The notes: generated from the letters alone by a model not told the origin. A DNA stretch of 64,000 nucleotides from an uncultured Phycisphaerales bacterium (GCA_963755915.1 CAVWLP010000002.1:4064001-4128000), one strand, 5' to 3'. Positions 14,200 to 38,863 are shown, counted from the first letter of the stretch. Program-made: numbers and translations.

Positions 14200-15614
14200 A
14201 TGGCGAAAACGTCCTCCGTCGCACTTGGCGTCATCATCGGAAACCGCGATTTCTTTCCCGATGTGCTCGTGGGAGAGGCGCGAAAGGAAATCGGCAAACT
14301 GCTTCAAGAATCGCAGATCGATGCGGTCATGCTCTCCCCGGAGCAAACGAAGCTCGGCGGGGTCGAGACCTATTCCGATGCCCGAAAGTGCGCCGATCTC
14401 TTTTCCGAAAATCGGCGTCGAATCGACGGCGTCCTGGTCGTTCTGCCCAACTTCGGCGACGAGAAGGGCGTAGCCGATACGCTGAAGCTCGCGCGCCTCA
14501 ACGTCCCGGTGCTTATCCAGGCCTATCCGGACGATCTCAACGCCCTCGGCGTTGCGCGGCGGCGCGATGCGTTTTGCGGCAAAATTTCCGTCTGCAACAA
14601 CCTCAATCAGGCCCGCATTCCCTTCACCCTTACGCAAAAGCACGTCGTTCAGCCCAGCGATCCGTCCTTCAAAAGCGACCTGGCCCAGTTCGTCGCGGTA
14701 TGCCGGGTTGTCAAAGGCCTTCGCTCAGCGCGGTTCGGCGCCGTCGGCGCGCGGCCCGGTGCGTTCAATACCGTCCGCTATAGCGAGAAAATCCTCGAGC
14801 GCTACGGCATCAGCGTCACCACCGTCGATCTCTCGGAAATTCTCGGCAAGGCCGAGAAGCTGGGGCCGGGCGACGCGCCCGTGAAAGCCAAGCTGGCCGA
14901 GATCAAGGATTATGCACCGTCGGTGGGCGTCCCCCCGGAGAAAATCGTGCAGATGGCCAAACTTGGCGTGGTTCTCGACGATTTCGTCGCCGCCAACGAC
15001 CTGGACAGCACCGCCATTCAATGCTGGACCAGCCTTCAGCAGAACTACGGCTGCAACGCCTGCACGTGTATGAGCATCATGTCGCAGAAACTCATGCCCA
15101 GCGCCTGCGAGACCGACATCACCGGCGCACTTCGATGCACGCCCTCTCGCTGGCTTCGCAACAGCCCAGCGCCCTGGTCGATTGGAACAACAATTACGGC
15201 GACGATGAGGATAAATGCGTTTTGTTTCATTGCGGCAACTGGCCGATCGGGTTCGCGCCCGACACCAAGATCGCCAACGCGCCGATCCTCGGCAGCACCC
15301 TCGGCGTTGAAAACACCTACGGCGCGATGGAAGGACGCGCGCCTGCCGGTCCGTTGACGTATGCCCGCTTCACGACCGACGATGCCAACGGCGTGATTCG
15401 CGGATACGCCGGCCAGGGCACCCTCACCAGCGACGCCCTGGAAACCTTCGGCCAGCGCGCGGTGGCCAAGATCCCCCGTCTACAATCGCTCCTGCGGCAC
15501 GTATGCCTCGAAGGATTCGAGCATCACGTCGCCGTCAACCCCTCGCATACCGCCGGCGTAATTGTGGAAGCCTGCGGGCGATATCTGGGCTGGGAAATGC
15601 ATCATCACGCCTGA
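14200..15614 (+). CDS. L-fucose/L-arabinose isomerase family protein (candidate D-apiose isomerase; frameshift ~15135)
   Basis: 'LPNFGDEK', 'RRDAFCGKISVCNNL', 'AIQCW', 'ACETD', 'LFHCGN', 'GFEHHVA'. First gene of the transketolase/kinase operon; RBS 'gaggga' upstream. Confidence 0.8.
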
Positions 15615-15632
15615 TTTTCAGCGGCCATTGCC

Positions 15633-16475
15633 ATGAGCATGACTGACGCGCAACTTGCACTCAAAAGTATTTCCTACCGCCGGCGCATTCTCGAAATCAT
15701 CCGCCACGCCGGCGCCGGGCACACCGGCGGAAGCCTTTCCTGCATCGATATCCTCAGCGTTTTGTACAACCGCATCTTGCGGGTTTCTCCGCAAACATTT
15801 GGCGACGCCCAGCGCGACCGTTATATCCAGAGCAAGGGGCATTCGGTTGAGGCGTTGTATGTCGTGCTCGCCGACCGCGGATTTTTCCCCCGCGAGCAGC
15901 TCGATACGCTCTGCGCGTATCAATCGCACTTCGTCGGCCATCCGACACGCAAGGTTCCCGGGATCGAGCAAAACACCGGCGCACTCGGGCACGGTTTGCC
16001 CATCGCCGTCGGAACGGCCATCGCCGGGAAGATGGATCACGCCGCGTTCCGGGTTTTCGTCCTTCTCGGAGATGGCGAGCTTGCCGAAGGATCGAATTGG
16101 GAAGCGGCGATGGCCGCCGCCCATTATCGGCTCGATAACCTCATCGCGATCGTCGATCACAACACGCTGCAAATCACCGGCCGCACGCGCGATGTCTGCT
16201 CCAACGAACCGCTTGACGAAAAGTTCCGCGCTTTCGGGTGGACCGTAAAAACCGTCGATGGCCATTCGATTTCGCGGCTCACCGAGGCTCTGACCAGCAC
16301 GGATTCCACCGGCAAACCCCTGGTGGTGATCGCCAACACCATCAAAGGCAAGGGCGTGAGCTTCATGGAAGACGTGGCGAAATGGCACCACGGCGTGCCC
16401 ACAGATGCGGAGTTTGCGGCGGCGATCAAGGAATTGGACGCCGCCCTTGCCGCCGCGGAAAAGGCGGTCCAATGA
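15633..16475 (+). CDS. Transketolase N-terminal subunit (AptA-like, apulose-4-phosphate transketolase candidate)
   Basis: 'GHTGGSLS', 'DRYIQSKGH', 'TGALGHGL', ThDP motif 'GDGELAEGSNWEA...N', 'TIKGKG...WHH'. Confidence 0.9.
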   Translation: MSMTDAQLALKSISYRRRILEIIRHAGAGHTGGSLSCIDILSVLYNRILRVSPQTFGDAQRDRYIQSKGHSVEALYVVLADRGFFPREQLDTLCAYQSHFVGHPTRKVPGIEQNTGALGHGLPIAVGTAIAGKMDHAAFRVFVLLGDGELAEGSNWEAAMAAAHYRLDNLIAIVDHNTLQITGRTRDVCSNEPLDEKFRAFGWTVKTVDGHSISRLTEALTSTDSTGKPLVVIANTIKGKGVSFMEDVAKWHHGVPTDAEFAAAIKELDAALAAAEKAVQ

Positions 16476-17470
16476 GCGCTGCGGCCCCGTCCATGTTTAG
16501 CCCAGCCGCTGCCGCAATGGCTGCGCGATTGGGCCTGAAACTCGGCCGCCCCAATCTCGAGGAGTTCGGCGCCACGCTCCTCAAACTCGCAACCGAAAAC
16601 CCCCAGATCGTCGCCGTCACCAGCGACTCCCGCGGTTCGGGCAAGCTCGTCAATTTCGGCTCGGCGCTTCCGACCCAGTTGGTCGAACTTGGTATCGCTG
16701 AGCAGAACCTCGTCGCTGTTTCGGCCGGCCTCTCGTCGGTCGGCAAGATCGTTTTTGCCGTCTCCCCCGCTTGTTTTCTCACCGCCCGGGCCCTCGAACA
16801 AATAAAAAATGACGTCGCCTATTCAAACAACCCGGTGAAGTTGATCGGCATCAGCGCCGGCGTCAGCTACGGCGCGCTGGGATCGACCCACCATTCGCTG
16901 CACGATCTGGCCGCCCTGCGGGCCATCAACAACATCGAAATCGTCGTGCCCGCGGATAATTTCGAAGCCCGTGAGTCGATCAAAATTGCCGCCGCACATC
17001 CGCGCCCGATGTTTATCCGCTTCGGCAAGGCGTCGCTCTACGATTTAACTCAGACCCAGCAGGGCTTTGAAATCGGCAAAGCCCGGCTCATTCGGGACGG
17101 ATCCGACATCGCATTCATCGCCACCGGCGAAACCGTCATTCACGCGCTTCTGGCCGCGGGCGCTTTGGCGGATGAGGGGATCTCCTGCCGGGTCGTGAGC
17201 ATGCACACGATCAAACCGCTGGATCACCAGGCGATTCTCGACGCGGCAAACCGTTGCGCGGCCATCATCACCGTCGAAGAGCACAGCGTTTTCGGCGGCC
17301 TCGGCGAAGCCTGCGCGGCCGTGCTCCTTCAGGCGAACGCTGCCCCGCGGTTCAAAATCGTCGGAATTCCCGACGAATACACCGTCACCGGCAGCCAGGC
17401 CGACATCTTCCGCCACTATGGCATCGCCATGGAAGCATTGGCAACGCTGGCACGAAATCTCCTGCGCTGA
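16472..17470 (+). CDS. Transketolase C-terminal subunit (AptB-like)
   Basis: ATGA overlap with the upstream gene; 'ELGIAEQN', 'RALEQIKNDVAY', 'GSTHHSLHD', 'TIKPLD', 'VEEHSVFGGLG'. Confidence 0.9.
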   Translation: MSAAAPSMFSPAAAAMAARLGLKLGRPNLEEFGATLLKLATENPQIVAVTSDSRGSGKLVNFGSALPTQLVELGIAEQNLVAVSAGLSSVGKIVFAVSPACFLTARALEQIKNDVAYSNNPVKLIGISAGVSYGALGSTHHSLHDLAALRAINNIEIVVPADNFEARESIKIAAAHPRPMFIRFGKASLYDLTQTQQGFEIGKARLIRDGSDIAFIATGETVIHALLAAGALADEGISCRVVSMHTIKPLDHQAILDAANRCAAIITVEEHSVFGGLGEACAAVLLQANAAPRFKIVGIPDEYTVTGSQADIFRHYGIAMEALATLARNLLR

Positions 17471-17479
17471 GGCAGCAAA

Positions 17480-18968
17480 ATGGCTCATCTACTGGCCATC
17501 GATCAAAGCACTTCCGCCACCAAGGCAATCCTTTACGACCCCCTCGGCAACCTGGTCGACAAGGCGTCGATCGAACACCGCCAGTTCTACCCCCAGCCGG
17601 GCTTCGTTGAGCATGACGCGGGCGAAATATGGAACAACACGCTGGCGGCGATCAATTCACTCTCCGAACGCGCCGGCGACAGTCTCCGAGATGCCTCCTG
17701 CCTGAGCATCACCAATCAGAGAGAAACCTTTGTGGTTTTCGATCGCGCCACCGGCCAGCCGTTGCATCCGGCTATCGTCTGGCAATGCCGGCGCAGTGAT
17801 GAAATCTGTGAAGAACTTCGAGGCGCCGACACCGGCGAAATTGTCCCCCGCAAAACCGGGCTCAGGATCAATTCTTACTTCTCCGCCCCCAAGCTCGCCT
17901 GGCTGATCCGCAACCGGCCCGATATCGCCGCGAAGCTGGCCGCCGGCGAAGCGCTTGTCGGGACCATCGACGCTTACCTGATTTACCGTCTGACCGCCGG
18001 CAAAACCTTCGCCACCGATCACACCAATGCAAGTCGTACCCTGCTCTATGATATTCTGGGCCTGCGCTGGGATGAAGAATTATGCGCGATCTTCGGCGTC
18101 CCGATGCGCTGCCTGCCGGAAGTGCGCGACAGCTCCGCGGAATTTGGCACAACCGACGCGCGCGGAATCCTGGGCAAACCCATTCCAATCTGCGGCGTGA
18201 TTGGCGACTCTCAGGCGTCGCTGGTGGCGCACCAATGTTTGCAGCAGGGAATGGCAAAGGTCACGCTCGGCAGCGGCGCATCGGTTCTTTTGAACATCGG
18301 ATCTTCGCATCGCGCCGCTGGCGAGGGCGCGGTTTCCACCATCGCCTGGACCCATCACGGCAAGCCGGTTTACTGCTTCGAGGGAATCATCAATTATGCC
18401 GCCGGAACGATCGCTTGGCTGAAGGACCAGTTGGGATTAATTCAAACCGCCGAGGAAACCGAAACCCTTGCGCAGCAAGTGCCCGACAACGCGGGCGTAT
18501 ATTTCATTCCCGCCTTCGCTGGGCTTGGTGCGCCCTATTGGGCCCCGCGGGTGCGGGCGGCGATTGTCGGGTTGACGTCGCATTCCAATCGCAATCACGT
18601 CGTGCGGGCGGCGGTCGAATCGATCGCCTACCAGGTCTGCGATGTCCTGGAAATGATGCAAACCCGTTCCGGCGTAAACCTGCGGACCTTGCGCGCCGAT
18701 GGCGGCGCCAGCCGCAATAAGTTCCTGATGCAGTTCATGGCCGATATCAGCGGGCTCGAGGTGGTCGCCGCGCCGATTGCCGAGTGCTCGCCCCTCGGAG
18801 CCGCGCTTCTGCGCACTCGGGATGGGACTGTTCGCCTCGATGGACGACATCTCGCGCCTCCCATTTGCTGGGCTGAAATATCAACCCTTGATGCCCAAAG
18901 GTCGGGCCGAGGCCTTTCGGCTCGGCTGGAAAAACGCCGTGAAACAGCAATTGGCTGGAATCGAATGA
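17480..18968 (+). CDS. FGGY/glycerol kinase-like sugar kinase (candidate apulose kinase; frameshift ~18810)
   Basis: 'LAIDQSTSATKA', 'ITNQRET', 'AIVWQCRR', 'TDHTNASRT', 'GLGAPYW', 'ADGGAS.N..LMQF.AD'. The true C-terminus lies in ORF 18777..18968 ('ALGMG...GWKNAV'). Confidence 0.88.
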
Positions 18969-21643
18969 ATTCCCATTTCCGTCCCCCTGCGCTTCGCTGT
19001 GAATACCGCGCGGAGCCTCTGGGCATCGACACGCCGGCTCCACGATTCAGTTGGCAAATCGATGCCGATTCGCATCGGCTGGGCGGGAAACAGATCGCGT
19101 ATCAAATTCTCGTCGCCTCATCGCGCGATCTTCTCGACGCAAATGTCGGCGATCTTTGGAACCCCGGCAAAGTCTGCTCGTCCCAATCGTTCAGCATCCC
19201 CTATCAGGGCCGCACCCTCTCTTCCGCCGAGCAGGCTTGGTGGAAGGTTCAAATCTGGGACGAAACCGCCGCGTCGGAATGGAGCGACCCAGCCGCCTTC
19301 ACAATGGGATTGCTAAATGCATCCGATTGGATCGCGAATTGGATCACAACCGATCCGCAAACATACGTCTCGAAATCCCTCCCCATATTTCGCAGAGAAT
19401 TCACCCTGGAAGCGATCCCGGCCCGGGCCCTGATATTCGTCTGCGGCCTGGGGCATTTCAAATTACGCATCAACGGACAAACCGCCGGCGAAAACGTCCT
19501 CGATCCCGGCTGGACGAATTATTCGAAGACGTGCTTGTACGTCACCCACGACGTAACTTCGCTCCTTCGCACCGGTTCCAATGTGCTGGGGATGATGCTC
19601 GGCAACGGGATGTTTAACGTCGTGGGGGGGCGCTACAAGAAATTCAAGGGCTCGTTCGGACCGCCAAAATTCATCCTGCAGATGCTCTTGACCTTTCCGG
19701 ACGGCACCACGCGGACAATCATCAGCGATGAATCATGGAAGTGTTCCCCAGGCCCCATCACCTTCAGTTGCATCTACGGCGGAGAGGACTCCGACGCCCG
19801 CGACAACCCAACCGGCTGGGATATGCCGAATTGTGCCGGCAACGGATGGTCGCAGGCCGCGCTCACATCCGGTCCGGGCGGCACGTTGCGATCACAAACG
19901 GCCCCTCCAGTAAGAGTCATGAAAACATTTCGTCCCGTCCGGATTTCCAGTCCCGCGGCCGATCTGGCCGTTTACGACCTGGGCCAAAACTTTTCCGGCT
20001 GGCCGCGGATTAAGACCACGGGCCAACCCGGATCGAAAATCGAACTAATCCCCGGCGAACTGCTCGACGCCTCCGGCCGCGTTTCCCAGCGCTCCTGCGG
20101 AAGCCCCATATCATTCTCTTGCACCAGCGCCGGCAAACCCCAATCGTGGCATCCCGAATTCAGCTTTACCGGCTTCAGATTTATCGAAGCCCGGGGCGAC
20201 GTGGCCGCGATCGAAGAACTCGAAGGCCAGTTCGTTCATTCATTCGCCGCCGCCGCGGGATCGTTTAGTTGTTCCAACCCGCTTTTCAACCAGATCCATG
20301 AACTGATTAACGCCGCCATTGCTAGCAACATGCAAAGCGTGCTCACCGATTGCCCTCACCGCGAAAAACTCGGCTGGCTGGAACAATCGCACCTGATGGG
20401 GCCTGCCATCATGTTCAACTACGACGTGCCCCTGCTTTACGCCAAGATATGCGCCGATATGCGCGAGGCGCAGCAGGGCGATGGGTGCGTCCCGACGATT
20501 GCCCCGGAATACACCAAATTCACCGGTCAATACGCCGATTTCAGCAATTCCCCCGAATGGGGCAGCGCCGCGGTCATCAATCCCTGGCTCACTTTTCAGC
20601 AATATGGAGACGTTCAAATTCTCCGTGACAATTTCGACATGATGCGGCGGTACGTGCAATATCTTGATCGCCGCGCACAGGACGGCATCATCGACTTTGG
20701 TCTGGGCGATTGGTACGACATCGGCCCGGGCGATCCGGGCTATTCCAAGCTCACCACCAAAGCCCTGACCGGAACCGCCTTCTACTTTTTGGATCTTCAA
20801 ATACTCGCGAAGGTGGCCCTCCTGCTGGGCGATGCCACCGAGTCCCAATTATGCGCCGAGCGCGCAAATGAGGTTCGCCGCGCGTTTCAGGCCCGGTTCT
20901 TCGACCCCCGGGCCGGCCATTACGATCGAAACAGCCAGACCGCCAACGCAATGGCCCTCGCCCTTGGTTTGGCCGACCCGGGCGATGCGCCGCGCGTTCT
21001 CGATAGCCTGATCGCCGACATTCGCGCACGCGAGAATCACATCACGGCAGGGGACATCGGATTTCGATTCGTCCTGGACGCGTTAAGCGAAGCGAATCGA
21101 TCCGACGTAATCTTCGACATCCTCTCGCGCACCGATTCCCCCAGCTACGGCGCCCAACTCCGCGCCGGCGCAACATCCCTCACCGAAGCCTGGGACGCCA
21201 ATCCCGCGAAATCGCAGAATCATTTGATGCTCGGCCATGCCGAACAATGGTTCTATCAGTCCCTGGCCGGGATTCGTCTGGACATGTCCCTGAGCGGCGC
21301 CGATCGGCTGGTAATTCGTCCGGCGATCGTCGGCGATATTTCCTGGGCCGAGGCGGATTACGACTCCATCCTCGGGCGCATCCGCTGCCGCTGGGAGCGG
21401 CGAGATCACGGTCTCGATTTGTCGGTCGAAATTCCATTCAACAGCAGCGCCACGATCTATCTGCCCGCACCGTACGGAACACGGATATTTGAATCCGGCC
21501 GTCCAATCGCCGATATGTCCAATGTTAAACTCAAAAATCTGGACCGCGAGGTCGCTATAATAATCGCTGACGCCGGCAAATATTCGTTCGAGTCGCGATG
21601 GAATGCCCACCACAGAAACATCCCCACGAACCACGCCGACTAA
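18965..21643 (+). CDS. GH78 alpha-L-rhamnosidase
   Basis: ATGA overlap with the kinase stop; 'LRCEYRAEPLGIDTPAPRFSW', 'YDLGQNFSG', 'TDCPHREKLGW', 'GDWY', 'GATSLTEAW...SQNH'. No signal peptide. Confidence 0.92.
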   Translation: MNSHFRPPALRCEYRAEPLGIDTPAPRFSWQIDADSHRLGGKQIAYQILVASSRDLLDANVGDLWNPGKVCSSQSFSIPYQGRTLSSAEQAWWKVQIWDETAASEWSDPAAFTMGLLNASDWIANWITTDPQTYVSKSLPIFRREFTLEAIPARALIFVCGLGHFKLRINGQTAGENVLDPGWTNYSKTCLYVTHDVTSLLRTGSNVLGMMLGNGMFNVVGGRYKKFKGSFGPPKFILQMLLTFPDGTTRTIISDESWKCSPGPITFSCIYGGEDSDARDNPTGWDMPNCAGNGWSQAALTSGPGGTLRSQTAPPVRVMKTFRPVRISSPAADLAVYDLGQNFSGWPRIKTTGQPGSKIELIPGELLDASGRVSQRSCGSPISFSCTSAGKPQSWHPEFSFTGFRFIEARGDVAAIEELEGQFVHSFAAAAGSFSCSNPLFNQIHELINAAIASNMQSVLTDCPHREKLGWLEQSHLMGPAIMFNYDVPLLYAKICADMREAQQGDGCVPTIAPEYTKFTGQYADFSNSPEWGSAAVINPWLTFQQYGDVQILRDNFDMMRRYVQYLDRRAQDGIIDFGLGDWYDIGPGDPGYSKLTTKALTGTAFYFLDLQILAKVALLLGDATESQLCAERANEVRRAFQARFFDPRAGHYDRNSQTANAMALALGLADPGDAPRVLDSLIADIRARENHITAGDIGFRFVLDALSEANRSDVIFDILSRTDSPSYGAQLRAGATSLTEAWDANPAKSQNHLMLGHAEQWFYQSLAGIRLDMSLSGADRLVIRPAIVGDISWAEADYDSILGRIRCRWERRDHGLDLSVEIPFNSSATIYLPAPYGTRIFESGRPIADMSNVKLKNLDREVAIIIADAGKYSFESRWNAHHRNIPTNHAD

Positions 21644-22722
21644 CCCGCCAACCCCTGAAGATCCCATTCTTCCAAAACGGACCTGACAGTGACCGGCTGA
21701 CGCCGTTGAAGGCTCCGGTCCATCGCCGTCATGAGCGCGACAGTCACAATCCCCTCCCGCAAATCGGGCGCAGGCGTCTGGTTGCTTTCGATGCATCGCG
21801 CGAAATATTCAATGTAATTCTGATACTCCCCCGCATGATGACTGCGCCCGCCGAAGCGGAAATAATAGGGCGCCCGCGTTTCAATATCATATTGCACGCA
21901 TCCTTCCCCTTTGAAATGCGTGCTGTAGCGCAGATCGTAATAATCCGCCTGGCTCGCCCCATTTTCCCCCCGAAGAATGCAGGTCATGTGGCTGTCGCGC
22001 ATATGGTTCACCGGCGGCGAGCTGTAACACCCGCTCACCCGCGCAATGTTTCCAGCCCCCGTCGTCATCACGAAGTGCATCGAATCCGCATCGCGAAGGC
22101 CGCCCACTCGTCCGTTTTCCGTCAGCATGCCATACCCCATCACCTCCGTCACATCCGGAAAATACCAGCGGACCAGGTCGACAGGATGACTCAATCCCCC
22201 GAATAGCCATTTCAGCCCACCCGTCTTCGCCCAGTCCTTCTGAAGGAACCACCGGTTGTCGGCGTGATAGTGTGCCTCGACGGAAAAAAGTTTGCCGTGC
22301 TTTCCAGCATCGAAATCGGCGCGCTGCCAGATCATCGGCTCGAAGAACCGCGAGCTCTGCCCCACGAACACCCGCCGCCCGGTTCTCTGGGCAACCTCCA
22401 GCAGCGACTTCGCCTGCTCCAGGTTATCCAGCAGCGGCTTCGTGCATATCGCGTGTTTCCCCGCCTCCAAAATCTGCTTGATGTGGCTCGCATGCAGCGG
22501 ATCGGGCGTATACACCCCGATCACGTCAATCTTCGAATCCCCCAGCATCTCCTCAAATTTCGTCGTATAGCGATCGAGCCGGAACTCGGCCGCGCGCTCC
22601 TTGCAAAGCGCCTCGTTCAAATCGCAAATCTGGGCCAGCTCCCAAAGCTGGCTGTTCAACGCCGCCGAGATAATGCTTCGGCCTTCTCCCAGTCCCAGCA
22701 CGCCAAGTCTCAGTTTCGTCAT
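21640..22722 (-). CDS. Gfo/Idh/MocA family NAD(P)-dependent oxidoreductase
   Basis: Rossmann 'LGVLGLGEG', 'IDVIGVYTPDPLH', 'AGKHAICTKP'. Last gene of the RLP operon. Confidence 0.88.
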   Translation of the reverse strand: MTKLRLGVLGLGEGRSIISAALNSQLWELAQICDLNEALCKERAAEFRLDRYTTKFEEMLGDSKIDVIGVYTPDPLHASHIKQILEAGKHAICTKPLLDNLEQAKSLLEVAQRTGRRVFVGQSSRFFEPMIWQRADFDAGKHGKLFSVEAHYHADNRWFLQKDWAKTGGLKWLFGGLSHPVDLVRWYFPDVTEVMGYGMLTENGRVGGLRDADSMHFVMTTGAGNIARVSGCYSSPPVNHMRDSHMTCILRGENGASQADYYDLRYSTHFKGEGCVQYDIETRAPYYFRFGGRSHHAGEYQNYIEYFARCIESNQTPAPDLREGIVTVALMTAMDRSLQRRQPVTVRSVLEEWDLQGLAG

Positions 22723-22742
22723 GTTAAAAATACCCGGCTAAA

Positions 22743-25252
22743 TCAACGGTTCGATAATACACCATAAAGTTCAGCTTCGCGCAGATTCGCTCGCGCGCCG
22801 GGCGAAATTGACGTGAACGTGATCCGCACATACCGGGCCACCGCTCCCGGATCGAAGATATCGTTGCGCACCGCATCTACCCGCTCCGTCCGCGTTCGAT
22901 CTATCCCGAGCGCCCATTGCGCCCCATCCATCGACAACTCCATCCGATACCGATAGTTTCCCGCCGCGTTGAAGGTAAGCCTGCAACTCGAAAGCTGGTA
23001 AAACCCCTCCAGATCGATCCTGAACCACGCTGGAAGGCCGGCGTCCCGCGCCTCCCACCAGGTCTGCGCATTTGCATCGTTCGCGAACCGTGCAGGCTGC
23101 CCTTCGGCTTCCGAGCTTGCCGCGCTCGGCCGGTCGCGGGCAACGTTCACTGCATTCTTCATCGCCTCGATCGAAGCCTGCGACGGCTCCGCCCGTTTGT
23201 ACGGTCGAGCCGCCGCTGGCAACGTTTCACCCTCCACCCATCGCGGCTCCCCCTCGGTTGTGATGACGAGCCACGCATCCCCCAGCCCCGGCGAAGTCGC
23301 GCGAATCCGGCTCTGTCCCCCGTGATAGGAGCGAAACGCAATCCCCGCCTCTCCTTCGGCAATAGCGATATCGCCATCGGCTTCGAAGGTGATGCTTCTC
23401 CCGGTCGGAAATTCTCCCGGTCCCGATTCGATCGTCAACGTGATCGCCGGCGAATTGCTGATCCGATTTCCCCCCGCATCCAGCACACAAACCACGATTT
23501 GGCAATCGTCGGTTGCATCCGTGCCCGCGATTGTGGTCTTGTCCGCCGTTATCTCCAATTTGGCCGCGGTTCCCGGCGCGGGCCACGGCGGGGGGGCAAT
23601 TCCGCGCAGTTCATTGCGATACCAGTACCAGCTCCGTTTCGGAATACGATTGTGCTGCACGATTCCCTTCAGACCCTGCCGCCCCGCGATGCTGCCATAA
23701 TCAAACCCGCACCAGATCGCCTCTCCTCCGCGCCACGCAAACCGCTCCGATTGCAACTCGCCAAAGAAGGGTTCATACGCATCGACCGGCTTGCTGATCG
23801 CGCCATATTCGCTGACCATGTTGGCGATGCCCGGGTCCATAAAAAGCCGGGCCCCATCGCCGTTATATCCAGCGACGTCCCCCAGCTTGTCCACCTGCCC
23901 GCGCTGAGCCCCGCCGACAGCCGCGGGGCGGGTCGGGTCGAGCTCATGGCTCAGCTCCACCATCCGCGCGATCAGCAACCTGGCCCTTTCAAGGTCATAC
24001 GTGAAAAACGCCTCGTTCGTCATGCTCCAGATCACGATCGACGGATGGTTCCGATTGAAGCGGATCATTTCCGCAAGCATCCGCTCACAACTCTCCTCAA
24101 ACGCTTCCCGATCCGCCGCATTGATCGGATACGCGCTCGCATTCCAATACCCCTCAGGCCCGAATCCGCCTTTCCCCCAAAAACATGCTTCCGACCAGAA
24201 GATCATCCCCAGCCGGTCGCACGCATCGGCAAACGCCGGGTTATGCGGATAATGCGCACTGCGCACGAAATTGAACCCGGCCTCTTTGATCAGTTTCGCA
24301 TCCCGAAAACACGCCCCCTGCGTCGTCGCGATGCCCCATCCCGCCTGATCCTGATGCGCGTTGACGCCGCGCAGGTAAAGATGTTCGCCATTGAGAAAAA
24401 AGCCCCGATCGCTCGTCCATTCAAACCAGCGGAAACCAATCGCGGTTTCGAAGTCGTCCAAAAGCCCGTCGTCATGCAGTTCCACTCGCACGCTGTAAAG
24501 CGCCGGATGATTTGGATGCCACAACTCCACCCCGGCAATGGCCGGCAAAGCCTGCTCGATTTCAACCGTCGATCCCGCCCCGATCTCGTGCGACGTATCG
24601 CTCGAAGCCACAACGCGCCCCCGCGGATCGCAAACCCGCGTCGCCAGCCGAAAGCTGCTCGCGTGATCCAAGCGATTTGAAACCTCCGTTGTCACCATCA
24701 CCGTCGCCGATTCCCGCGACACCGACGGCGTGGTCACGCCCACCCCATGCCACGTAATATGCAGCGGCTCCTTCACCACAAGATAAACATCCCGATAGAT
24801 CCCCCCCGAAAAATGTGCTCGCCCGCCCGCGGAACCAGCCGCGGATTCCAGCTATTGTCCACCTTAACGGCCAGCAAATTCGCCCCGGCGCGAACCGCAT
24901 CAGTAATCTCAATGCAAAACCCCGTATATCCCCCTTCATGCCGCCCAACCAATGTGCCGTTAAGAAAGACATCGGCGACCTGAAAGACCCCCTCAAATTC
25001 GAGAAACAATCGCTTTGTCGCCCAATCATCCGGAATGTCGATTCGCTTTCGATACCAACCAACGCCGACATAAAAATCGGCCGCGCGAAAATAAGGAAGA
25101 TCAAATGTGTGCGGCAGTCCCACCCGCGTCCAATTGGTGTCGTCGAACTTCCAGTCCTGCGCACCGCCTGCGTCGCCAGGAAAGAATTGCCACTCCCGAT
25201 TGAGGTTCAGCCGCCTGCGGCCCGATTGCCGTGATGACACCAATCCTCCCAT
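22743..25252 (-). CDS. GH2 glycosidase with C-terminal F5/8-type C (CBM32-like) domain (frameshift ~24800)
   Basis: 'LNREWQF', 'LPHTF', 'LEFEGVFQ..HEGGYTGF', 'GVNAHQD', 'RSAHYPH', 'NRNHPSIVIWSMTNE', and a C-terminal discoidin-like 'NVARDRPSAASSE...FAND...ARYVRIT'. Confidence 0.88.
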
Positions 25253-25254
25253 TT

Positions 25255-25926
25255 TCAGCTCGCCGCGACGATCTGCGCCAGATGTTCAACGGCAAGCCGG
25301 GGGCTGGAGAGAATCGGCACAGGTTTCTCCTCCGCCTTGAGCCCGTCGGCAGTGCGCGCCATCGAAGCCTGCGCCAGCACGATGACATCCACCCTCGGCG
25401 ACAAATCTCGCAGCGCCTGCCCAATCAGCGCATCGTGCCTCGCCCCGTCTCCGGACATCACCGCTTCAAACGCTCCGCTCACCACTTGCGAGATGACCTC
25501 AACCGCCTTCCCATCCTTCCGCCGGCAGCTTCGGATGAGAGCAACGGTCGGCTCCAACGTCGAAGGCAGCGTCGCCACCACCCCCACCCGATGCCCGGTA
25601 TTCACCGCCTTTTGCGCCATCGCTTCATCGACTCGCAAAACGGTCGCCGCGCTAAGCGCCCGCGAGGCCTCCACTGCCCGCCCCATCGAAGAACACGTCA
25701 CCATGATAAACTCCGCCCCCGCCTCCTCGGCCGAAAGCACGTGCCCAACCAGCCGCCGCGCCGTCGCCGGCGGCGTCTTTCCCTCCCGAATGATGTCGCA
25801 CAGCAGGCTTTCATCCACCATGTTGAAGATCGTCGCTCCAGGCAACAGCTCGTTCGCCAACGCCTTGAAAATTGGAATCATCGACGGCGACGTATGAACA
25901 AACGCGATCGTTTTCGACATAATCAT
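25255..25926 (-). CDS. Asp/Glu/hydantoin racemase superfamily protein
   Basis: 'FVHTSP', 'MVTCSSMG', 'LRVDEAMA', 'GVVATLPSTLEPT', 'DVIVLAQASM', 'LSSP'. ATGA overlap with the kinase stop. Confidence 0.85.
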   Translation of the reverse strand: MIMSKTIAFVHTSPSMIPIFKALANELLPGATIFNMVDESLLCDIIREGKTPPATARRLVGHVLSAEEAGAEFIMVTCSSMGRAVEASRALSAATVLRVDEAMAQKAVNTGHRVGVVATLPSTLEPTVALIRSCRRKDGKAVEVISQVVSGAFEAVMSGDGARHDALIGQALRDLSPRVDVIVLAQASMARTADGLKAEEKPVPILSSPRLAVEHLAQIVAAS

Positions 25927-27244
25927 TCCCGGTGAAATTCCCGCCCCTGCTCCACAAGCCCAAAGAATTCCTCATTGCCGATCTGCCCCCCCTTGAAGGC
26001 GATTTCCAGTCCGTCGATGGATGGATTCGTAGAACTCGCCTTGCACAGCGGCACGCCGCGCGTCAGCTCGCCGATCATTTCAACCGCTTCAATCCCCAGT
26101 GCCCGCGCGACTTGACTCGATGTATCTCCGCCCGCCACCACGGCCCGGCGCATACCCGTCTCACCCAAAGCCCTCGCGAGAATTCTCCCCAGCGCCGCGC
26201 CAATTCCTGATGTGTCATTTGCCCACAGGTCCTTCGTCCCGCTGCCGCCCGTGTGAAGGCAAACGCTCCTGCCCGCGCGGATCGCAGCGCACACCTCAGA
26301 GCAGGTATCGCCCACATCCTGCCCATCAAAAACAATCTCCGCGAAACCATTGCCCACCGCCCAGCGAATCTGCGCCCCGGTAACCGGAGAGCAGCTCCCC
26401 GCCACAGCGATAATCGGCGTTGCCGGCCCCGGCTGCTCGAAATGCGCCGTCCGGGCCGCGCTTCCCGTTTTCATCCAGTGCGCGCACAGAGCAGACTCCA
26501 CCCCGGATGATCCTGCGACAAACAGGGGGCCATCGCTCCTCGCGTGCTCCGCCATGATTGCCCCGATCGCTTCCAGATGGCGATCATAAAGAACATCCAT
26601 CAGTACAATTCGCGCGCCCTCTCCCAGCAAAGACTCCAACCGCCGATGCAGATCCTCCGACTGCATTTCCATATCGATCGCGTCCACCAATCCGATCCGC
26701 TTCGACGTTTGTTTCCCCAGATGCACGCGCAGATCCGCTTCGTCCATCGGCGTAATCGGATGCCGGCTCATCGACGGATGCCGGTCCAGCCGATAGATTT
26801 CCGGTTCCCCTCCGCACCGCGCAAAAAGATTCCCGAATGCGCAGTATCGCCCCAGCGCCGGTGCGCCCACCACCACCGGCACAAACCGAGACCCAAACAC
26901 TTCCATCCCAACGTCAATCACCCGCCCAATACTGCCGATCGCGGGCGATGAATCGAACGTCGAGCAGGTTTTGTAATGGACAATCGGCGCGCCCGAATCG
27001 CGCATCGCCAGAAAATCGGCTCGATCTGCTTGGCGATCTGATCCGTCGGCAGCGACCGCGTCAATCCCGCCACGCCCAGCGCCTGCAATCCCTTATACCG
27101 TTCCAATTGCGCCGCCGTCGGAACATTCGTGAACAGCACCGTGCGGATTCCATGCCGAGCCAGCGATTCCATCGCATCCGTCGACCCGGTGAAATCGTCG
27201 CCGACAAACGCCATCAGCAGGTTGCTTTGCTTCGCGCCGTTCAC
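25923..27244 (-). CDS. Four-carbon acid sugar kinase family (DUF1537), OiaK-like (frameshift ~27010)
   Basis: 'GDDFTGSTDAME', 'HYKTCSTFDSS', 'AGSCSPVT', 'AGGDTS', 'KGGQIG'. GTG start overlaps the RLP stop. Confidence 0.9.
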
Positions 27245-28504
27245 GTGGATTGTTTCCCAAACCTGGCGATGCTTTGCCCCAGTTCCCGGTGATCGCGCGC
27301 ATAATCTTCCAGCGGTCTGCCGGCAACCGCCGCTTCCCACGCCTGCCGCAGCGCCGCCACTCCCGACCCCGGCCCACCCGGATGCGCCATGATTCCTCCC
27401 CCCGCCAGGTAAAGAAGATCAGCCGTATGCGTGCGCCGCCACGTTTCCGGTGCTTGAAGCCCCGTCTGTCCGGATGAGACGACCGGAAGAACCGCGCGCC
27501 CTCCGGACATCGGCTCCAGGCAAGCCGCGATCGATCTCACCACCGAATCATCGCTCTCCCAGAACTTGTTGGCGATCCCGTTCACATGAATCTGATCCAC
27601 CCCGGCCAATCTCCAGATTTTCTGATATGCGGTGAATTCTATCCCCAGCCACGGATGCCGGTTCAGCATTCCCCATCCGTTGCGGTGTCCGTGAACCGCC
27701 AGCGCGCCCAGATCGCAAATCTTTTTCACGCCGGCCAGGCCCACGCTGTTCAGCGAGACCATCACCGCCGTCCCTCCCGACGTGCGGACCTTCTCATAAT
27801 GCCGCAGCATCGCGTCGATTTCATCGCTGATGTTGAACGCATACATCACCTTCTTTCCCGTGCGATCGGCATGCGCGTTCAGTACCTTCATCACCGCATC
27901 GACGCGCTGGTCGAATGGCGAGTGAGGCGGATTGGCCATCAGCTCATCATCTTTAATGAAATCGATCTTCGCTTCCGCAAGTAGAGCGACCAAATTTGCC
28001 GTCTCCTCCGGCGACAGCCCGATGCTCGGTTTTATAATTGTCCCAATCAGCGGCCTGCCGCGCACACCACTCAATTCACGCGTACCCGCGATTCCAAATC
28101 GCGGCCCCGGGAACGCCTTGACGTATGTCTCCGGAAACTCCAGATCGACCAGCTTCACCCCCGAAAATTCTCGCAGCTCATACAAATTCCCCTGCACCGT
28201 CGAAACCAGCGTGGGTAAATTGTGCCCGAAGTTTTCGATCGCCCAGGAAACCACGATCTCGGCGCGCCGGTACTGCCCCGAAAATCCCTCTCGGGGCTTT
28301 TTAATTGGCAAGCTCGGCTCCGAAACGCCCGGCAACTCGCTGATCTTCTCCACCCGCGCCAAATCGCCGCCGGATTTCGTCCGTCTCCCCGGGAACTTCC
28401 ACAAATGTTCCCGATGATTGTTCCCCCGCCAAAACCGCGGCCGCGCGGTTGACTTCCAGGGGGGTCTCGATCAAATAGGTGGCGCTGATTCGCTCTGCCG
28501 GCAT
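27241..28504 (-). CDS. RuBisCO-like protein (form IV), OiaT/OiaX-type (frameshift ~28355)
   Basis: N-terminus 'ATYLIETP...AGEQSSGTF..VPGETDE', 'GTIIKPSIG' (KPS instead of KPK), 'FIKDDE', 'HGHRNG', 'NKFWE', 'SSGQ', 'GGGIMAHP.G'. No small subunit or PRK nearby. Confidence 0.92.
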
Positions 28505-28547
28505 CCTCGATTATGATCCCAAAAATCAGTCGAATTGTCATGTTTTC

Positions 28548-30739
28548 ATGATAGACCGCCTCGATGAATTCAACGTCGTTTGGGATTCGCCCAGCGGGGA
28601 TGCTTCAGGCTCAATGCCTCTCGGCAACGGCGACATCGCGCTGAATGTATGGGTTGAAGCGGGGGGCGACTTGCTGCTCCTGACCGCCAAATCCGATGCC
28701 TGGGACGAAAATTCGATCAATCTCAAACTCGGCCGCATCCGCGTAAAACTCTCCTCAAATCCTTTCCAGCCCGGCCAGAAATTTCGCCAGACACTGCGCC
28801 TCAGAACCGCCGAAATTGAAATCGATGCCGGAACAGTCCATCTGCGAATCTGGGTCGATGCCAATTCACCCGTCATTCACATTGAAGCCCACGGAGACAC
28901 GCCGTTCGAAATCGAAGCCTCGCTGGAAATGTGGCGTACCTCACCCGCGCCATCCAGACCCAAACCAGCGACATGTTCAAGAACCTGGCCGCAAAAAACA
29001 GCGATCCCTATCCCACGATCGTCTGGCCCGACCAACTCCTCGAAGGTCCCGCCAATTCCGTGACCTGGTGCCACCACAACGAGAAACGCGATCCCGATCC
29101 CTACGAAACTAATCTGCGTCTTCAGGGTCTCGGTCAAATGCTGGATCATCTGCCCCATCCGCTGCTCGGCCGGGTTTTCGGGGCGTCGATGTTCGGCGGG
29201 AATTTCAAACGCGTCGATCCGCAAACACTTCGCTCGAATTCCGCGAGCACCAGTCATCATCTGAACATATTCGCCCTCAGCCAGTATCCCTCGACCCCAT
29301 CGCTATGGCTCGACGAAATGCATTGCAGGATTGCCAATGTCGGCGAATCTTCTTCCTCGCGCCAGCGCACGAGCTCCATTGGGAAAAGTTCTGGAATTCA
29401 AGCTGGATCTATATCACCGCCAGTTCCCCCGAAGCAAAGGCCGATGCCTTTCAGATCACGCGGGCGTACATCCTCCAACGATTCATGAATGCCGCCGCCG
29501 GCGCGGGCCCGATCAAGCACAACGGCTCCCTCTTCACCGTTGGCACTCCGGACGATCCCGATTTCCGGCGGTGGGGGGGTCCCGGGTTCTGGTTCCAAAA
29601 CCAGCGACTGATCTATTGGCCCATGCTCGCCGCCGGCGATTTCCATCTCATGCGCCCGTGGCTTGAAATGTATTTCCAATCCCTCCCCCTTGCCCGTCAC
29701 CGCACCGAAACCTATTTCCACCATGGCGGCGCCCACTATCCCGAAACCATCACCTTCTGGGCGCCGAAGTCAGCGCTCACTATGGCTGGACTCCATTCGA
29801 ACAGCGGAAAAATCCCGAAGCCGAATCCCCCTATCTCAAATACTACTGGACCGGCGGCCTGGAATTAACGCTCCTCCTGTGCGAATACTGCGCCTATACC
29901 GCCGATCCGCAATTCGCCCGCGACCGTCTCCTCCCCATCGCCGAGGCCGTCATCGAGTTTTTCGATCTTCACTATCCGCGCGACCCCGATGGAAAAATCC
30001 GCTTCGAGCCGGCCCAGGCTTTGGAGACCTGGCACCAGGCGGTCAACCCGCTGCCCGAAATCGCCGGGCTTCGCTATACGCTTGGCCGCCTCCTCGCCCT
30101 CCCCGAAGAATTCATTTCCAAGAGTTTGCGCGATCGATCCGCGCACGTGCTCGCGAGCTTCCCCAGCTCCCCCTCGGCGAAAAAAACGGAAAACGCTTCC
30201 TTTTTCCTGCCCAGCAGTTCGATCGCCTGAAGAACACCGAAAATCCCGAGCTATATTGCGTATTTCCCTATCGATTATTCGGCGTCGGCAAACCCGATCT
30301 CGACCTCGCGCAAAATACCTTCGACGCTCGCCTCCACTGCTCGCACGATTGCTGGTCGCAGGACGACATTCAATTGGCCCTGCTCGGACGCAGCAACCAG
30401 GCCAAAAACTGGCTCGCCAAACGCGCTTCCCCCGCCTCCCACAGCGACAGCCGTTTTCCCGCCTTCTGGAACGCCTTCCACGATTGGCTCCCCGACGTCG
30501 ATCACGGCGGCGTCCTGCAGATGGCGCTCCAGTTAATGATCATGCAGGCCGACGACGGCCTCATCACTCTCCTGCCCGCGTGGCCCCCTGAATGGAACGT
30601 CGATTTCAAGCTCCACGCCCCCGGCCGCACGATTATCGAGGGCTCCGTGCGCGATGGAGAATTCGTCCATCTCCACGTCTCGCCACCCGCCTCCACAGCC
30701 CGAGTGAAAGTTGCGCAAAATCGAAACTCTTTGCCCTGA
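28548..30739 (+). CDS. DUF5703 / GH95-like glycoside hydrolase (about 4 frameshifts)
   Basis: 'NVVWDSPS..ASGSMPLGNGDI.LNVW', 'WFQNQRLIYWPML', 'PAQALETW', 'NTENPELY.VFPY', 'CWSQD', 'LLPAWPPEWNVDFKLHAP', distributed over ORFs 28479, 28931, 29305, 29663 and 30021. Confidence 0.75.
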
Positions 30740-30781: not shown

Positions 30782-32038
30782 GTGTTGAATTTATCCGCAA
30801 AAGTGTTTGGCGCCTGGTTTCTCGCCTGTTCCTGCACGGCCGGCGCTTTCGCCGCGCCCCCGGCAACCCTTCCAGCCGGCGGAGAGATTCAATTTCACAG
30901 CCCCGCCACCGGCGGCGTCGTCAACGGCAAAGTGCTCGTCCCCCCAAAGCCCGCCCCCAGCGCCGATGGCCGCATCCCGCTCGTCGTTTATCTCACCAAT
31001 CTCTCAATCCCCCGCCTCGGTCAGGAGCCGGACGATTCGATCATCCACGGCCTTCTCGATTCCGGCGATCTCGTCCTCCTCCTCGATTACGCCAAAAACC
31101 CCGCGGCCGTTTCTCCATCCCTCAATGCCGACATGCTCGAGCTCCGCCAGGAGATCGGCGGAAAAAAGAAAACCCTTCTCACCGAATATAACGTCGATGC
31201 CAATCATGTCTTCATTCTTGTCGAAGGCTATCGCCTCATGCGCGACGTGGAATTCGCCCGCGACAAATCCCGCATACTGGCCATGGACATTCAATATCCG
31301 TCAAACCCCGTCCATCCAGTCCCCGCCCTCATGGAGATCACCTGCGACAACACCAATCGCATGAGTTGCTACTCCCTTCTCTATTGTCACGATACCTTAA
31401 CCGACGGCGGCATGGCCGCCGGATTCGCCGTCGCGATGATCGATCATCCCGTTCCCCCGCCCTACAAAGGCATCGACGATCCGGAGCCGCAGCTCATTTA
31501 CCGTCTCAAGGCCGCCGTCAGAACCCTGCGCTTTACAGGCCGCCAACTTGGATTCACCGACCAGATCGGCGCCATCGGCTTCTCCCGCGGCGGACCCATG
31601 GCCGCGCTCCTCGCCGTCACCGGCGGCCGCACCGATCTCGAAGGCCCCGGCATCCATCCCGACGTCTCCAGCCGCATCCAGGCCGCGCTGATCCACGGCT
31701 GCCGATACGATTACGCCAATCTCGATTCCGACGATCCCATGCTCAAGCGATTTGAAAAAGTCTGGGGCCCGCGCGATCAGAATCCCACCCAATGGGACCA
31801 GCACGGCGCCGCATATTATCTCACCAAAGACACCGCCCCCATGTTCCTCAACACCAGCGACGCCGAATCAAAGGAATATCGGGACCAGCTCGCCCTCTTC
31901 AACGATGAGTTAACCCACGCCGGAATCGAGCACCAATATCAGCTCGATGTCGACGGCCGCGGCCACCATGTCACGTCCGACCCAAAAACCCTCGCCGCGA
32001 TTTATTTATTCTTTCACCAGCATCTCGATAACAGGTGA
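30782..32038 (+). CDS. Secreted alpha/beta-hydrolase (candidate carbohydrate esterase)
   Basis: Signal peptide; 'LKAAVRTLR...IGAIGFSRGG' nucleophile elbow; C-terminal His 'GRGHH'. Confidence 0.75.
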   Translation: MLNLSAKVFGAWFLACSCTAGAFAAPPATLPAGGEIQFHSPATGGVVNGKVLVPPKPAPSADGRIPLVVYLTNLSIPRLGQEPDDSIIHGLLDSGDLVLLLDYAKNPAAVSPSLNADMLELRQEIGGKKKTLLTEYNVDANHVFILVEGYRLMRDVEFARDKSRILAMDIQYPSNPVHPVPALMEITCDNTNRMSCYSLLYCHDTLTDGGMAAGFAVAMIDHPVPPPYKGIDDPEPQLIYRLKAAVRTLRFTGRQLGFTDQIGAIGFSRGGPMAALLAVTGGRTDLEGPGIHPDVSSRIQAALIHGCRYDYANLDSDDPMLKRFEKVWGPRDQNPTQWDQHGAAYYLTKDTAPMFLNTSDAESKEYRDQLALFNDELTHAGIEHQYQLDVDGRGHHVTSDPKTLAAIYLFFHQHLDNR

Positions 32039-34681: not shown

Positions 34682-34708
34682 GTGTGACAATGATCTTACC
34701 CTCACCGT

Positions 34709-38797: not shown

Positions 38798-38863
38798 CAC
38801 GCCAAGCACCCTCTCCGCCTCACGGACAGCGCCCAAGATATCCCCACCCCCCCCGCGAAATCC

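Follow-up and report, generated by a model that had tools for sequence, protein, structure and literature searches.

A RuBisCO-like protein and DUF1537 kinase cassette in rhamnogalacturonan II loci as a candidate for aceric acid catabolism

In a 64,000-nucleotide stretch of DNA from an uncultured Phycisphaerales bacterium (GCA_963755915.1, CAVWLP010000002.1:4064001-4128000; the whole stretch is called the window here, with positions counted from its first letter), we analyzed a minus-strand operon encoding a RuBisCO-like protein (RLP), a DUF1537 acid-sugar kinase, a protein with the Asp/Glu racemase fold, a glycoside hydrolase (GH) of family 2 (GH2), and a Gfo/Idh/MocA oxidoreductase. The first three genes form the heart of a cassette found in three phyla, which we think catabolizes L-aceric acid released from side chain B of rhamnogalacturonan II (RG-II) by a GH127 hydrolase of the BT1003 type; we put the probability of this reading at roughly 0.6. 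L-Aceric acid is 3-C-carboxy-5-deoxy-L-xylose and occurs in side chain B of RG-II. [quoted passage not shown] The support for the reading is circumstantial, its specific link to aceric acid resting on gene adjacency and chemical logic. The initial annotation of the operon had proposed either a second route for apiose or a route for aceric acid or another branched acid. We favor the latter option, considering the lack of the apionate oxidoisomerase ApnO, the separate clade formed by the RLPs, the neighboring GH127 gene, and the coexistence of the cassette with a putative apiose module.

Gene calls and Pfam matches place the five genes co-directionally between 28504 and 21640 (Table 1). The junction coordinates confirm that they form one operon with near-touching junctions, as first proposed. 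The RLP stop abuts or overlaps the kinase start (GTG at 27244 or ATG at 27214), the racemase-fold ATG at 25926 overlaps the kinase stop at 25923, the GH2 ATG at 25252 comes 2 nt after the racemase-fold stop at 25255, and 20 nt separate the GH2 and Gfo/Idh/MocA genes. The kinase shows the two-domain architecture of DUF1537 (SBD_N plus NBD_C), with its GDDFTGS segment lying in a shifted frame in the deposited sequence. In NCBIfam, the GH2 protein comes closest to GalA beta-galactosidase and LacZ4 beta-glucuronidase, with every score under cutoff, and inspection of its sequence by eye revealed no obvious signal peptide. The best match of the Gfo/Idh/MocA protein is inositol 2-dehydrogenase (95.8 bits against a cutoff of 355). 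The RLP, kinase, and racemase-fold genes are present in one copy each in the window's genome.

Table 1. Positions of the operon and of other features of the window
Feature	Position	Strand	Evidence and remarks
GH127, 5' part, best match aceric acid hydrolase	1..1031, continues past left edge	-	tblastn, 50% identity to the GH127 of locus L044; frameshifted
DUF6298 protein	1064..4183	-	1039 aa; 724 bits
GH138-like protein	5684..8435	-	NF049878, 661.6 + 219.3 bits in two open reading frames (ORFs); frameshifted
Putative non-oxidative apiose route, outside the cassette	14200..18850	+	isomerase-like gene, split transketolase, FGGY kinase
FGGY kinase and GH78 alpha-L-rhamnosidase in one ORF	17480..21643	+	1387 aa; FGGY model positions 3-446 of 496, GH78 complete
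Gfo/Idh/MocA oxidoreductase	21640..22722	-	PF01408 + PF02894; 360 aa; last gene of the operon
GH2 glycosidase with C-terminal F5/8 type C domain	22743..25252	-	Pfam GH2 N, middle, and TIM domains + F5_F8_type_C; 836 aa corrected
Racemase-fold protein	25255..25926	-	Asp_Glu_race PF01177, 74.2 bits (cutoff 31); 223 aa, intact
DUF1537 acid-sugar kinase	25923..27244	-	PF07005 (SBD_N), 135.6 bits + PF17042 (NBD_C), 91.4 bits
RuBisCO-like protein (form IV RLP)	27241..28504	-	PF00016, 222 bits; 421 aa once corrected
DUF5703-family gene, divergent from the operon	28479..30739	+	PF18961; three tblastn pieces in the assembly; frameshifted
GH78	32006..34705	-	frameshifted
Protein with only a PATR repeat recognized	38820..41555	-	911 aa

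A scan of species-representative genomes yielded 80 loci with RLPs 61-75% identical to that of the window, from Verrucomicrobiota (36), Bacteroidota (35), and Planctomycetota (7), plus two without a phylum assignment; the nearest named relatives are Fontivita pretiosa and metagenome-assembled genomes of Tepidisphaeraceae, which makes Tepidisphaerales the probable source of the window. Where sufficient DNA is available downstream of the RLP gene (eligible loci), it is accompanied by the kinase in 68 of 72 loci, by the racemase-fold gene in 64 of 66, and by a BASS-family symporter, with pantoate carrier PanS as best family match, in 54 of 62. The four-gene core of the cassette thus includes an anion carrier and no redox enzyme. 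Public annotations of its genes are generic. BASS is missing from eight eligible loci, the Phycisphaerae loci L007, L016, L082, and L084 among them. A GH2 gene follows the racemase-fold gene in the window's genome, in the congener G001, and in L016 and L082; an unrelated 753-aa protein takes this place in L084, and a Gfo/Idh/MocA gene of the window's type follows in L016, L082, and L084. Orthologues of that gene with 55-75% identity occur in 8 of the 80 loci, or 9 when one weak match (25%) is counted. The window operon is thus a planctomycete lineage variant of a widespread cassette, with GH2 and Gfo instead of BASS. The cassette is rare in the window's phylum (1 of 201 sampled genomes, namely the window's own), and it is found in 3 of 41 close relatives, including the window's genome. 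The phylum-wide sample of 200 further genomes was dropped for co-occurrence analysis because it held no additional carrier.

Other arrangements of these genes were also seen. Sphingobacteriaceae (Pedobacter and relatives, L028-L058) share a long co-directional array, noted some 10 kb upstream from the RLP gene, that comprises SBP_bac_1, a Gfo/Idh/MocA gene of a type other than the window's, MaoC dehydratase, MFS, GH106, GH127 (of the aceric acid hydrolase type), RLP, kinase, racemase-fold, BASS, SASA esterase, and DUF5703 genes. The alphaproteobacterial Croceibacterium plasmid NZ_CP156083 carries an operon of GH127-like, RLP, DUF1537 kinase, and GDSL esterase genes (L100, 8040-13217). The racemase-fold gene of this plasmid is found at a different site (L099, 7995-9922), accompanied by an MFS transporter gene and beside a GH140-like gene. 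RLP-DUF1537 kinase pairs in Rhizobium sp. Pop5 (L092), Rhodococcus sp. DMU1 (L093), and Bradyrhizobium elkanii (L089) accompany a short-chain dehydrogenase/reductase (SDR) or zinc-dependent alcohol dehydrogenase (ADH) together with a transporter, either a KDG permease or of the TRAP type. The 8 kb around these pairs hold no annotated ApnO, and the pairs may be further substrate variants of the RLP-kinase module.

When all ORFs in the 80 loci were clustered without bias, the top non-core neighbor was a 681-aa GH127 protein, encoded in 33 loci with a median upstream distance of 2.1 kb; the strand is shared in 91% of cases. In tblastn searches, 35 of the 80 loci have a GH127 gene of the aceric-acid-hydrolase type no farther than 10 kb away, and in 20 of 69 eligible loci this gene sits immediately upstream; neighbors resembling the GH140 apiosidase and GH138 were found in 4-5 and 4 of the 80 loci, respectively. 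Published work identifies BT1003 as the aceric acid hydrolase (GH127) for chain B of RG-II. The cassette-adjacent GH127 proteins of L044 (the representative) and L012 pass the NCBIfam model for aceric acid hydrolase, NF049879 (cutoff 950), with 1189.2 and 963.9 bits, and 28 of 29 near-full-length cassette-linked copies match it at E <= 1e-250. Outside the window's genome, all five cassette-bearing genomes analyzed hold a match of 885-1186 bits, three of them above the cutoff; other genomes of the PVC group score 885 and 935 bits. Bacteroides thetaiotaomicron was the only control genome over the cutoff. In the window, in addition to the truncated GH127 gene, we found genes for a GH138-like alpha-galacturonidase, a GH140-like apiosidase, GH28 and pectate-lyase-like proteins, GH78s, and GH2s, a content that marks the window as an RG-II locus. 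Two large proteins inside this locus, one of family DUF6298 and one with only a PATR repeat recognized, are listed in Table 1.

The next clusters around the cassette are GH78 (20 loci), GH106 (18), DUF5703 (18), and SASA esterase (17), and GH2 is also frequent. SASA esterase and GH2 fit RG-II chain B, since aceric acid carries O-acetylation and the GH2 enzyme BT_0993 is described as cutting Gal-beta-1,2-aceric acid. A BT_1020-like propeller protein, GH95, and an MR/MLE enzyme are rarer, with 5 loci each. The DUF5703 gene divergent from the operon adjoins the RLP gene in the same way in G001, L016, L082, and L084, and such a gene lies near the cassette in 19 of the 80 loci.

We also profiled 121 genomes of Sphingobacteriaceae, which are related and hence not independent samples. 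The RLP clade is present in 17, aceric acid hydrolase over the cutoff in 21 (all 21 matches exceed it), the chain A enzyme GH138 over its cutoff in 22, and the isomerase-like gene of a putative apiose transketolase route in 13. These three markers occur in 16, 16, and 12 of the 17 RLP-positive genomes, respectively. One genome has the RLP without aceric acid hydrolase (the weakest RLP, with 55% identity), five have the hydrolase without the RLP, and 99 have neither. We rejected genome-level co-occurrence as aceric-specific evidence, as the GH138 control is distributed like the hydrolase.

RLPs and DUF1537 kinases are known together from D-apionate catabolism. In oxidative routes 1 and 2, reportedly described by Carter et al. 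in 2018 and outlined in PMC13753588 and PMC6302742, ApnO acts first, OiaK follows, and then OiaX (a decarboxylase) or OiaT (a transcarboxylase/hydrolase); the ApnO step from D-apionate to 3-oxo-isoapionate is described as an oxidation with rearrangement (PMC13753588). OiaX is the best NCBIfam match of the window RLP (453.6 bits for a 387-aa fragment), and OiaK (NF042436, an equivalog model) is that of the kinase (334.6 bits for a 360-aa piece), neither reaching the cutoff of 700. The intact Rufibacter orthologues (508.8 bits for the RLP and 441.9 for the kinase, the latter sharing 49% identity with the window kinase) and a Fontivita RLP fragment (470.7 bits) stay below it as well. The second-best match of the kinase is OtnK with 164 bits. 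These cutoffs decide little alone, since the Cupriavidus RLP and kinase encoded near an ApnO-like gene also miss them (473.4 and 427.6 bits), and we dropped them as a discriminator.

The RLP scores below the cutoffs of every true RuBisCO model and fits form IV: it keeps KDDE (the carbamate lysine and metal ligands) and has KPS instead of the KPK of true RuBisCO. KDDE, HGHRNG, and KPS are common to all compared RLPs. At the positions equivalent to RuBisCO Asn111 and His321, the cassette clade and a group of non-OiaX RLPs keep these residues (QGNLYE and IHVN), while OiaX has Gly and Gln (IGGVY and FQIN), so that its active site differs from that of the cassette RLPs. A phylogeny of the RLP, proposed as a check from the start, separates it from PGAP-named OiaX and from ApnO-linked RLPs. 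In a maximum likelihood tree (LG+G4; 37 rows, made up of the references and one in three clade members), the cassette RLPs group together as a single clade (UFBoot 100/SH-aLRT 98), sister (90/90) to two PGAP-named OiaX proteins from Rhizobium etli and Salipiger that are themselves paired at 100/100. The ApnO-linked RLPs of Cupriavidus, Labrenzia, and Haloterrigena fall outside the clade, as does the Croceibacterium plasmid RLP, and a faster 48-row tree gives the same picture. Identities are 46-49% to PGAP-named OiaX and 52-55% to the ApnO-linked RLPs. Genes for enolase and pyruvate kinase are often found near the non-OiaX RLPs, and the Cupriavidus RLP cluster adjoins otnK/otnC, an adjacency matching the description of apionate route 2 (PMC13753588). 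On these two grounds, we infer that the non-OiaX group is OiaT-like. This hints, but does no more than hint, that the cassette RLP could perform a fuller RuBisCO-like cleavage. Relatives of the RLP at E <= 1e-30 number at least 7,998; generic names were all that the matches listed carried, with no OiaT reference among them.

The fold of ApnO is KARI-like (PMC13753588). The ApnO-like gene near canonical RLPs belongs to PF16896, is nearly identical to PDB 5t57, and is annotated as [quoted passage not shown] The Gfo/Idh/MocA gene was considered as an ApnO candidate and dropped on these grounds. In the window's genome, whose completeness is estimated at 81%, tblastn with the Cupriavidus ApnO-like protein gave no match, and neither did a search with PF16896, which detected the annotated gene in all three plasmid records used as a positive control. 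The ApnO-like protein was found in none of the 80 loci, and PF16896 was found in none of the five other cassette-bearing whole genomes, two of which are complete. The absence of ApnO, noticed at first in the window only, thus extends to all these searches.

The racemase-fold protein is the least familiar component. It had no match in an NCBIfam search, a sequence search of the PDB returned only E values of 0.12 and 0.4, and the ESM Atlas returned only generic "Asp/Glu racemase family" clusters. Its AlphaFold2 model has a pLDDT of 94.5, and the nearest PDB folds found by Foldseek are Asp/Glu racemases (TM 0.7-0.78, 15-20% identity). H11-T12-S13, C78-S79-S80, R98, D100, H164-D165, and Q186-A-S188 are invariant in 51-57 orthologues, and T119, T123, T127, and R191 are further invariant residues in 51 aligned orthologues. 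In the alignment with Pyrococcus Asp racemase (1jfl), Cys78 falls on the motif of the first catalytic Cys, and the second catalytic Cys is replaced by Gln186 (LAQASM), invariant in 51 of 51 aligned orthologues. A two-base racemase mechanism therefore appears unlikely, as Cys78 is the sole conserved catalytic Cys. A single base would suit a suprafacial proton shift (an isomerase) or protonation like that of arylmalonate decarboxylase (AMDase) more than racemization. A homologue with 46% identity that keeps the HT-, TCSS, and LAQASMA motifs is encoded on plasmid p42f of R. etli CFN 42 (L098, 8980-9663).

The chemistry of aceric acid suggests how the genes could work together. Because the core has no redox enzyme and aceric acid is already an acid, aceric acid fits as a substrate and apionate does not. 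In most of the phyla, free aceric acid would be imported into the cytoplasm by the BASS protein; in the window's lineage, import might instead be of a galactosyl-aceric acid fragment, to be cut by the operon's GH2, which could be a Gal-beta-1,2-aceric acid galactosidase like BT_0993. The racemase-fold enzyme, cofactor free and using a proton shift by its single Cys, would convert the aldose into its 2-keto isomer, HOOC-C(OH)(CHOH-CH3)-CO-CH2OH. This compound equals 3-oxo-isoapionate plus one methyl group. The isomerization would also yield a primary hydroxyl beside a ketone, the type of target used by the OtnK and OiaK kinases, and the DUF1537 kinase would phosphorylate this new hydroxyl as they do. 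The phosphorylated 2-carboxy-3-keto product would resemble the six-carbon intermediate of RuBisCO and could be the substrate of the RLP. Decarboxylation by the RLP would lead to a 5-deoxypentulose 1-phosphate, from which an aldolase could form dihydroxyacetone phosphate (DHAP) and acetaldehyde; an OiaT-like cleavage would instead give 3-phosphoglycerate and lactate. Aldolase cleavage of 5-deoxyribulose 1-phosphate to DHAP and acetaldehyde has been proposed (PMC6302742). The substrate, the order of steps, and the reaction of each enzyme are what we infer from the genes. The complete scheme, in which bacteria of three phyla convert aceric acid to central metabolites in three cytoplasmic steps (single-Cys isomerase, DUF1537 kinase, and RLP decarboxylation or cleavage), is tentative, and we consider it less probable than the choice of substrate.

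Several observations weigh against assigning the cassette to aceric acid. The assignment is itself a prediction from genes. The phyletic profiles tie the cassette only to general RG-II use, because the overlap of GH138 with the RLP equals that of aceric acid hydrolase (16 of 17 each), and the RLP is missing from 6 of 22 GH138-positive Sphingobacteriaceae genomes and from the B. thetaiotaomicron control. The co-occurrence proposed at the outset as a check holds at the level of loci, with the hydrolase type in 35 of 80 and apnO in none, and at the genome level is no tighter than for GH138. As to the GH127 gene that the initial annotation took as the source of aceric acid, its presence and its best match to NF049879 stand, while its score does not reach the family cutoff (735.9 + 96.2 bits across a frameshift, against 950), and some 20 kb separate it from the operon. 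The GH127-like protein upstream of the Croceibacterium RLP-kinase pair reaches only 87 bits on the same model. BASS is not found in the window's lineage, where the roles of GH2 and Gfo lack an explanation. Aldose-ketose isomerization is not known among the activities of the Asp/Glu racemase fold, and the R. etli p42f homologue, found amid genes for FAD oxidoreductases, an aldehyde dehydrogenase, and a peptide/opine-type ABC transporter, places the subfamily in a non-sugar context, so that it is not confined to the cassette. Neighbor clustering of the 80 loci also revealed no conserved downstream aldolase or lactate enzyme near the cassette.

Two other substrates have to be compared with aceric acid. 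The cassette might serve D-apiose or D-apionate through a second route that does not depend on ApnO, with the kinase and RLP acting on 3-oxo-isoapionate or its 4-phosphate and the 3-oxo acid being made by other enzymes, for example, the Gfo/Idh/MocA and racemase-fold proteins. That OiaX and OiaK are the best NCBIfam matches agrees with this, as do the sister position of the RLP clade to OiaX (90/90), the presence of the cassette in RG-II loci that also bear a GH140 apiosidase, and the Gfo/Idh/MocA gene of the window operon, a family also found near canonical clusters. However, the intact orthologues remain far under the equivalog cutoffs (508.8 and 441.9 against 700). Apionate needs a net oxidation and a shift of its carbon skeleton, whereas the four-gene core of 54 of 62 loci offers an anion carrier but lacks a dehydrogenase, and a Gfo gene of the window's type is found in only 9 of 80 loci. 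GH140-like neighbors are also far fewer than those of the aceric acid hydrolase type (4-5 against 35 of 80 loci). The window and 12 of the 17 RLP-positive genomes, moreover, already carry the marker of the putative apiose transketolase route. We regard a second apiose or apionate route as improbable.

Somewhat less improbable, though still doubtful, is that the cassette handles another RG-II or pectin acid or a further product of aceric acid, with the racemase-fold enzyme as a true epimerase or AMDase-like decarboxylase. This would agree with phyletic profiles that follow RG-II use in general, with neighbors such as the BT_1020-like propeller, GH95, and the MR/MLE enzyme, and with the occurrence of the racemase-fold subfamily outside sugar loci; the varied partners of the RLP-kinase pairs (SDR, ADH, and TRAP or KDG permease) suggest that the module is reused for several substrates. 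The other acidic RG-II sugars are poor candidates, however. On chemical reasoning, 3-deoxy-D-lyxo-heptulosaric acid (Dha) has no primary hydroxyl for the DUF1537 kinase and 3-deoxy-D-manno-octulosonic acid (Kdo) has none beside the carbonyl; the routes for galacturonic and glucuronic acids are well known, and no releasing enzyme of other acidic sugars is linked to the cassette as tightly as aceric acid hydrolase.

In the deposited sequence, RLP, kinase, and GH2 carry one frameshift each, which put the N-terminal residues of the three proteins (about 47, about 80 including GDDFTGS, and 159, respectively) in a shifted frame; that of GH2 sits in a T5G7 run near 24808. With three of its five genes broken, the operon as deposited could be taken for a decaying pseudogene cluster. 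We compared window positions 21640-28504 with contigs of four soil-metagenome runs (X1-X4) from one study and found that they depart from it by just three indels, namely, +A after 24808 (X1 and X2), +A after 27011 (X2 alone, a single contig of depth 2.2), and +CG after 28354 (X1 and X2), which repair the GH2, kinase, and RLP frames, respectively. With all three applied, every ORF is intact; in operon order, they encode 421, 472 (if read from the earliest start available), 223, 836, and 360 aa. Each indel is backed by one or two low-depth contigs, and the runs are possibly of the same samples as the assembly; the indels nevertheless fall at exactly the three sites predicted by protein homology and mend every frame, convincing evidence that the frameshifts are assembly errors and the five genes intact. 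Neighboring genes are also broken in the assembly, namely, GH127 (two pieces), the GH138-like gene (two ORFs), DUF5703 (three), and a GH78 (three), and the assembly appears to hold one indel error every few kilobases. The genome is in three contigs and still has only 81% marker completeness (8% contamination). The congener G001 carries the same operon in a matching gene order (DUF5703 / RLP-kinase-racemase-GH2-Gfo / GH78). Decay of the operon is thus very improbable.

The initial annotation had also placed a separate apiose route about 3 kb from the operon. The genes are there: an isomerase-like gene with a weak sulfoquinovose isomerase match, a split transketolase with N and pyrimidine/C domains, and a glycerol-kinase-like FGGY gene; their assignment to apiose is putative. 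The isomerase and transketolase set at 14200-17470 (+) looks like the apulose-4-phosphate transketolase (non-oxidative) route. The isomerase-like gene encodes 385 aa compared with about 470 aa in orthologues, its C terminus possibly cut by an indel. The fusion of the FGGY kinase with a GH78 rhamnosidase is probably another assembly indel, because the FGGY kinase of L016 is a separate 520-aa gene. Since 12 of 17 RLP-positive Sphingobacteriaceae carry the apiose-route marker, the apiose-route and RLP modules coexist and are not substitutes for each other.

The set of three or four genes is a concrete candidate for aceric acid catabolism, and its cultured carriers include F. pretiosa (B-254), Pedobacter (such as P. 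ginsengiterrae), Mucilaginibacter, and Dyadobacter (such as D. jiangsuensis). The initial annotation knew of no described catabolic route for aceric acid, and our literature search likewise found no paper on it or on this gene trio, nor any description of the fate of the released acid; the RLP cluster may have been mentioned earlier. If our reading is true, this would be the first such route, aceric acid would represent a third class of physiological substrate for the RLP lineage, and the chemistry of RLPs and DUF1537 kinases would be extended. A cofactor-free aldose-ketose isomerase would be a new reaction type for the Asp/Glu racemase fold, and thousands of homologues named [quoted passage not shown] could be properly annotated. 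The cassette may also account for differences among RG-II degraders, as it is present in 16 of 22 GH138-positive Sphingobacteriaceae and not in B. thetaiotaomicron. The window adds a planctomycete variant that lacks BASS, includes GH2 and Gfo among its operon genes, and has a putative apiose transketolase route 3 kb away; further additions are the GH138 control and read-level evidence for intact genes.

Compared with the apionate routes, the cassette shares the RLP and the DUF1537 kinase, encoded directly downstream, the KDDE and HGHRNG motifs, and a predicted substrate that is a 2-substituted 3-oxo-tetronate 4-phosphate. It differs in lacking ApnO, in whose place it has the racemase-fold gene and usually BASS, in its separate RLP clade, from which OiaX departs at the Asn111 and His321 equivalents, and in its position beside RG-II glycosidases, whereas apionate clusters lie beside ABC or TRAP sugar transporters. 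The racemase-fold protein itself shares PF01177, the fold, and the position of the first catalytic Cys with the Asp/Glu/hydantoin racemase superfamily, which comprises Asp, Glu, hydantoin, and allantoin racemases, arylmalonate decarboxylase, and maleate isomerase; it is set apart by its 15-20% identity, the replaced second Cys, and the lack of an NCBIfam match.

Pathways for C4 acid sugars with OtnK, OtnC, and OtnI, involving the DUF1537 family, were reportedly described by Zhang et al. in 2016. They resemble the cassette in their kinase family and in the logic by which a 3-oxo acid is phosphorylated at its terminus and then decarboxylated. In contrast, the decarboxylase candidate of the cassette is an RLP rather than the class II aldolase-type OtnC, and its isomerase candidate has the racemase fold rather than that of OtnI. 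These C4 pathways are also summarized in PMC13753588. With the RG-II system of B. thetaiotaomicron, represented by BT1003 (GH127), BT_0993 (GH2), BT0997 (GH138), and BT1012 (GH140), the window and related loci share GH127 of the aceric acid hydrolase type, GH138-like, GH140-like, GH2, GH78, and GH28 genes. B. thetaiotaomicron matches the aceric acid hydrolase and GH138 models and not PF00016, and it is thus an RG-II degrader without the RLP cassette.

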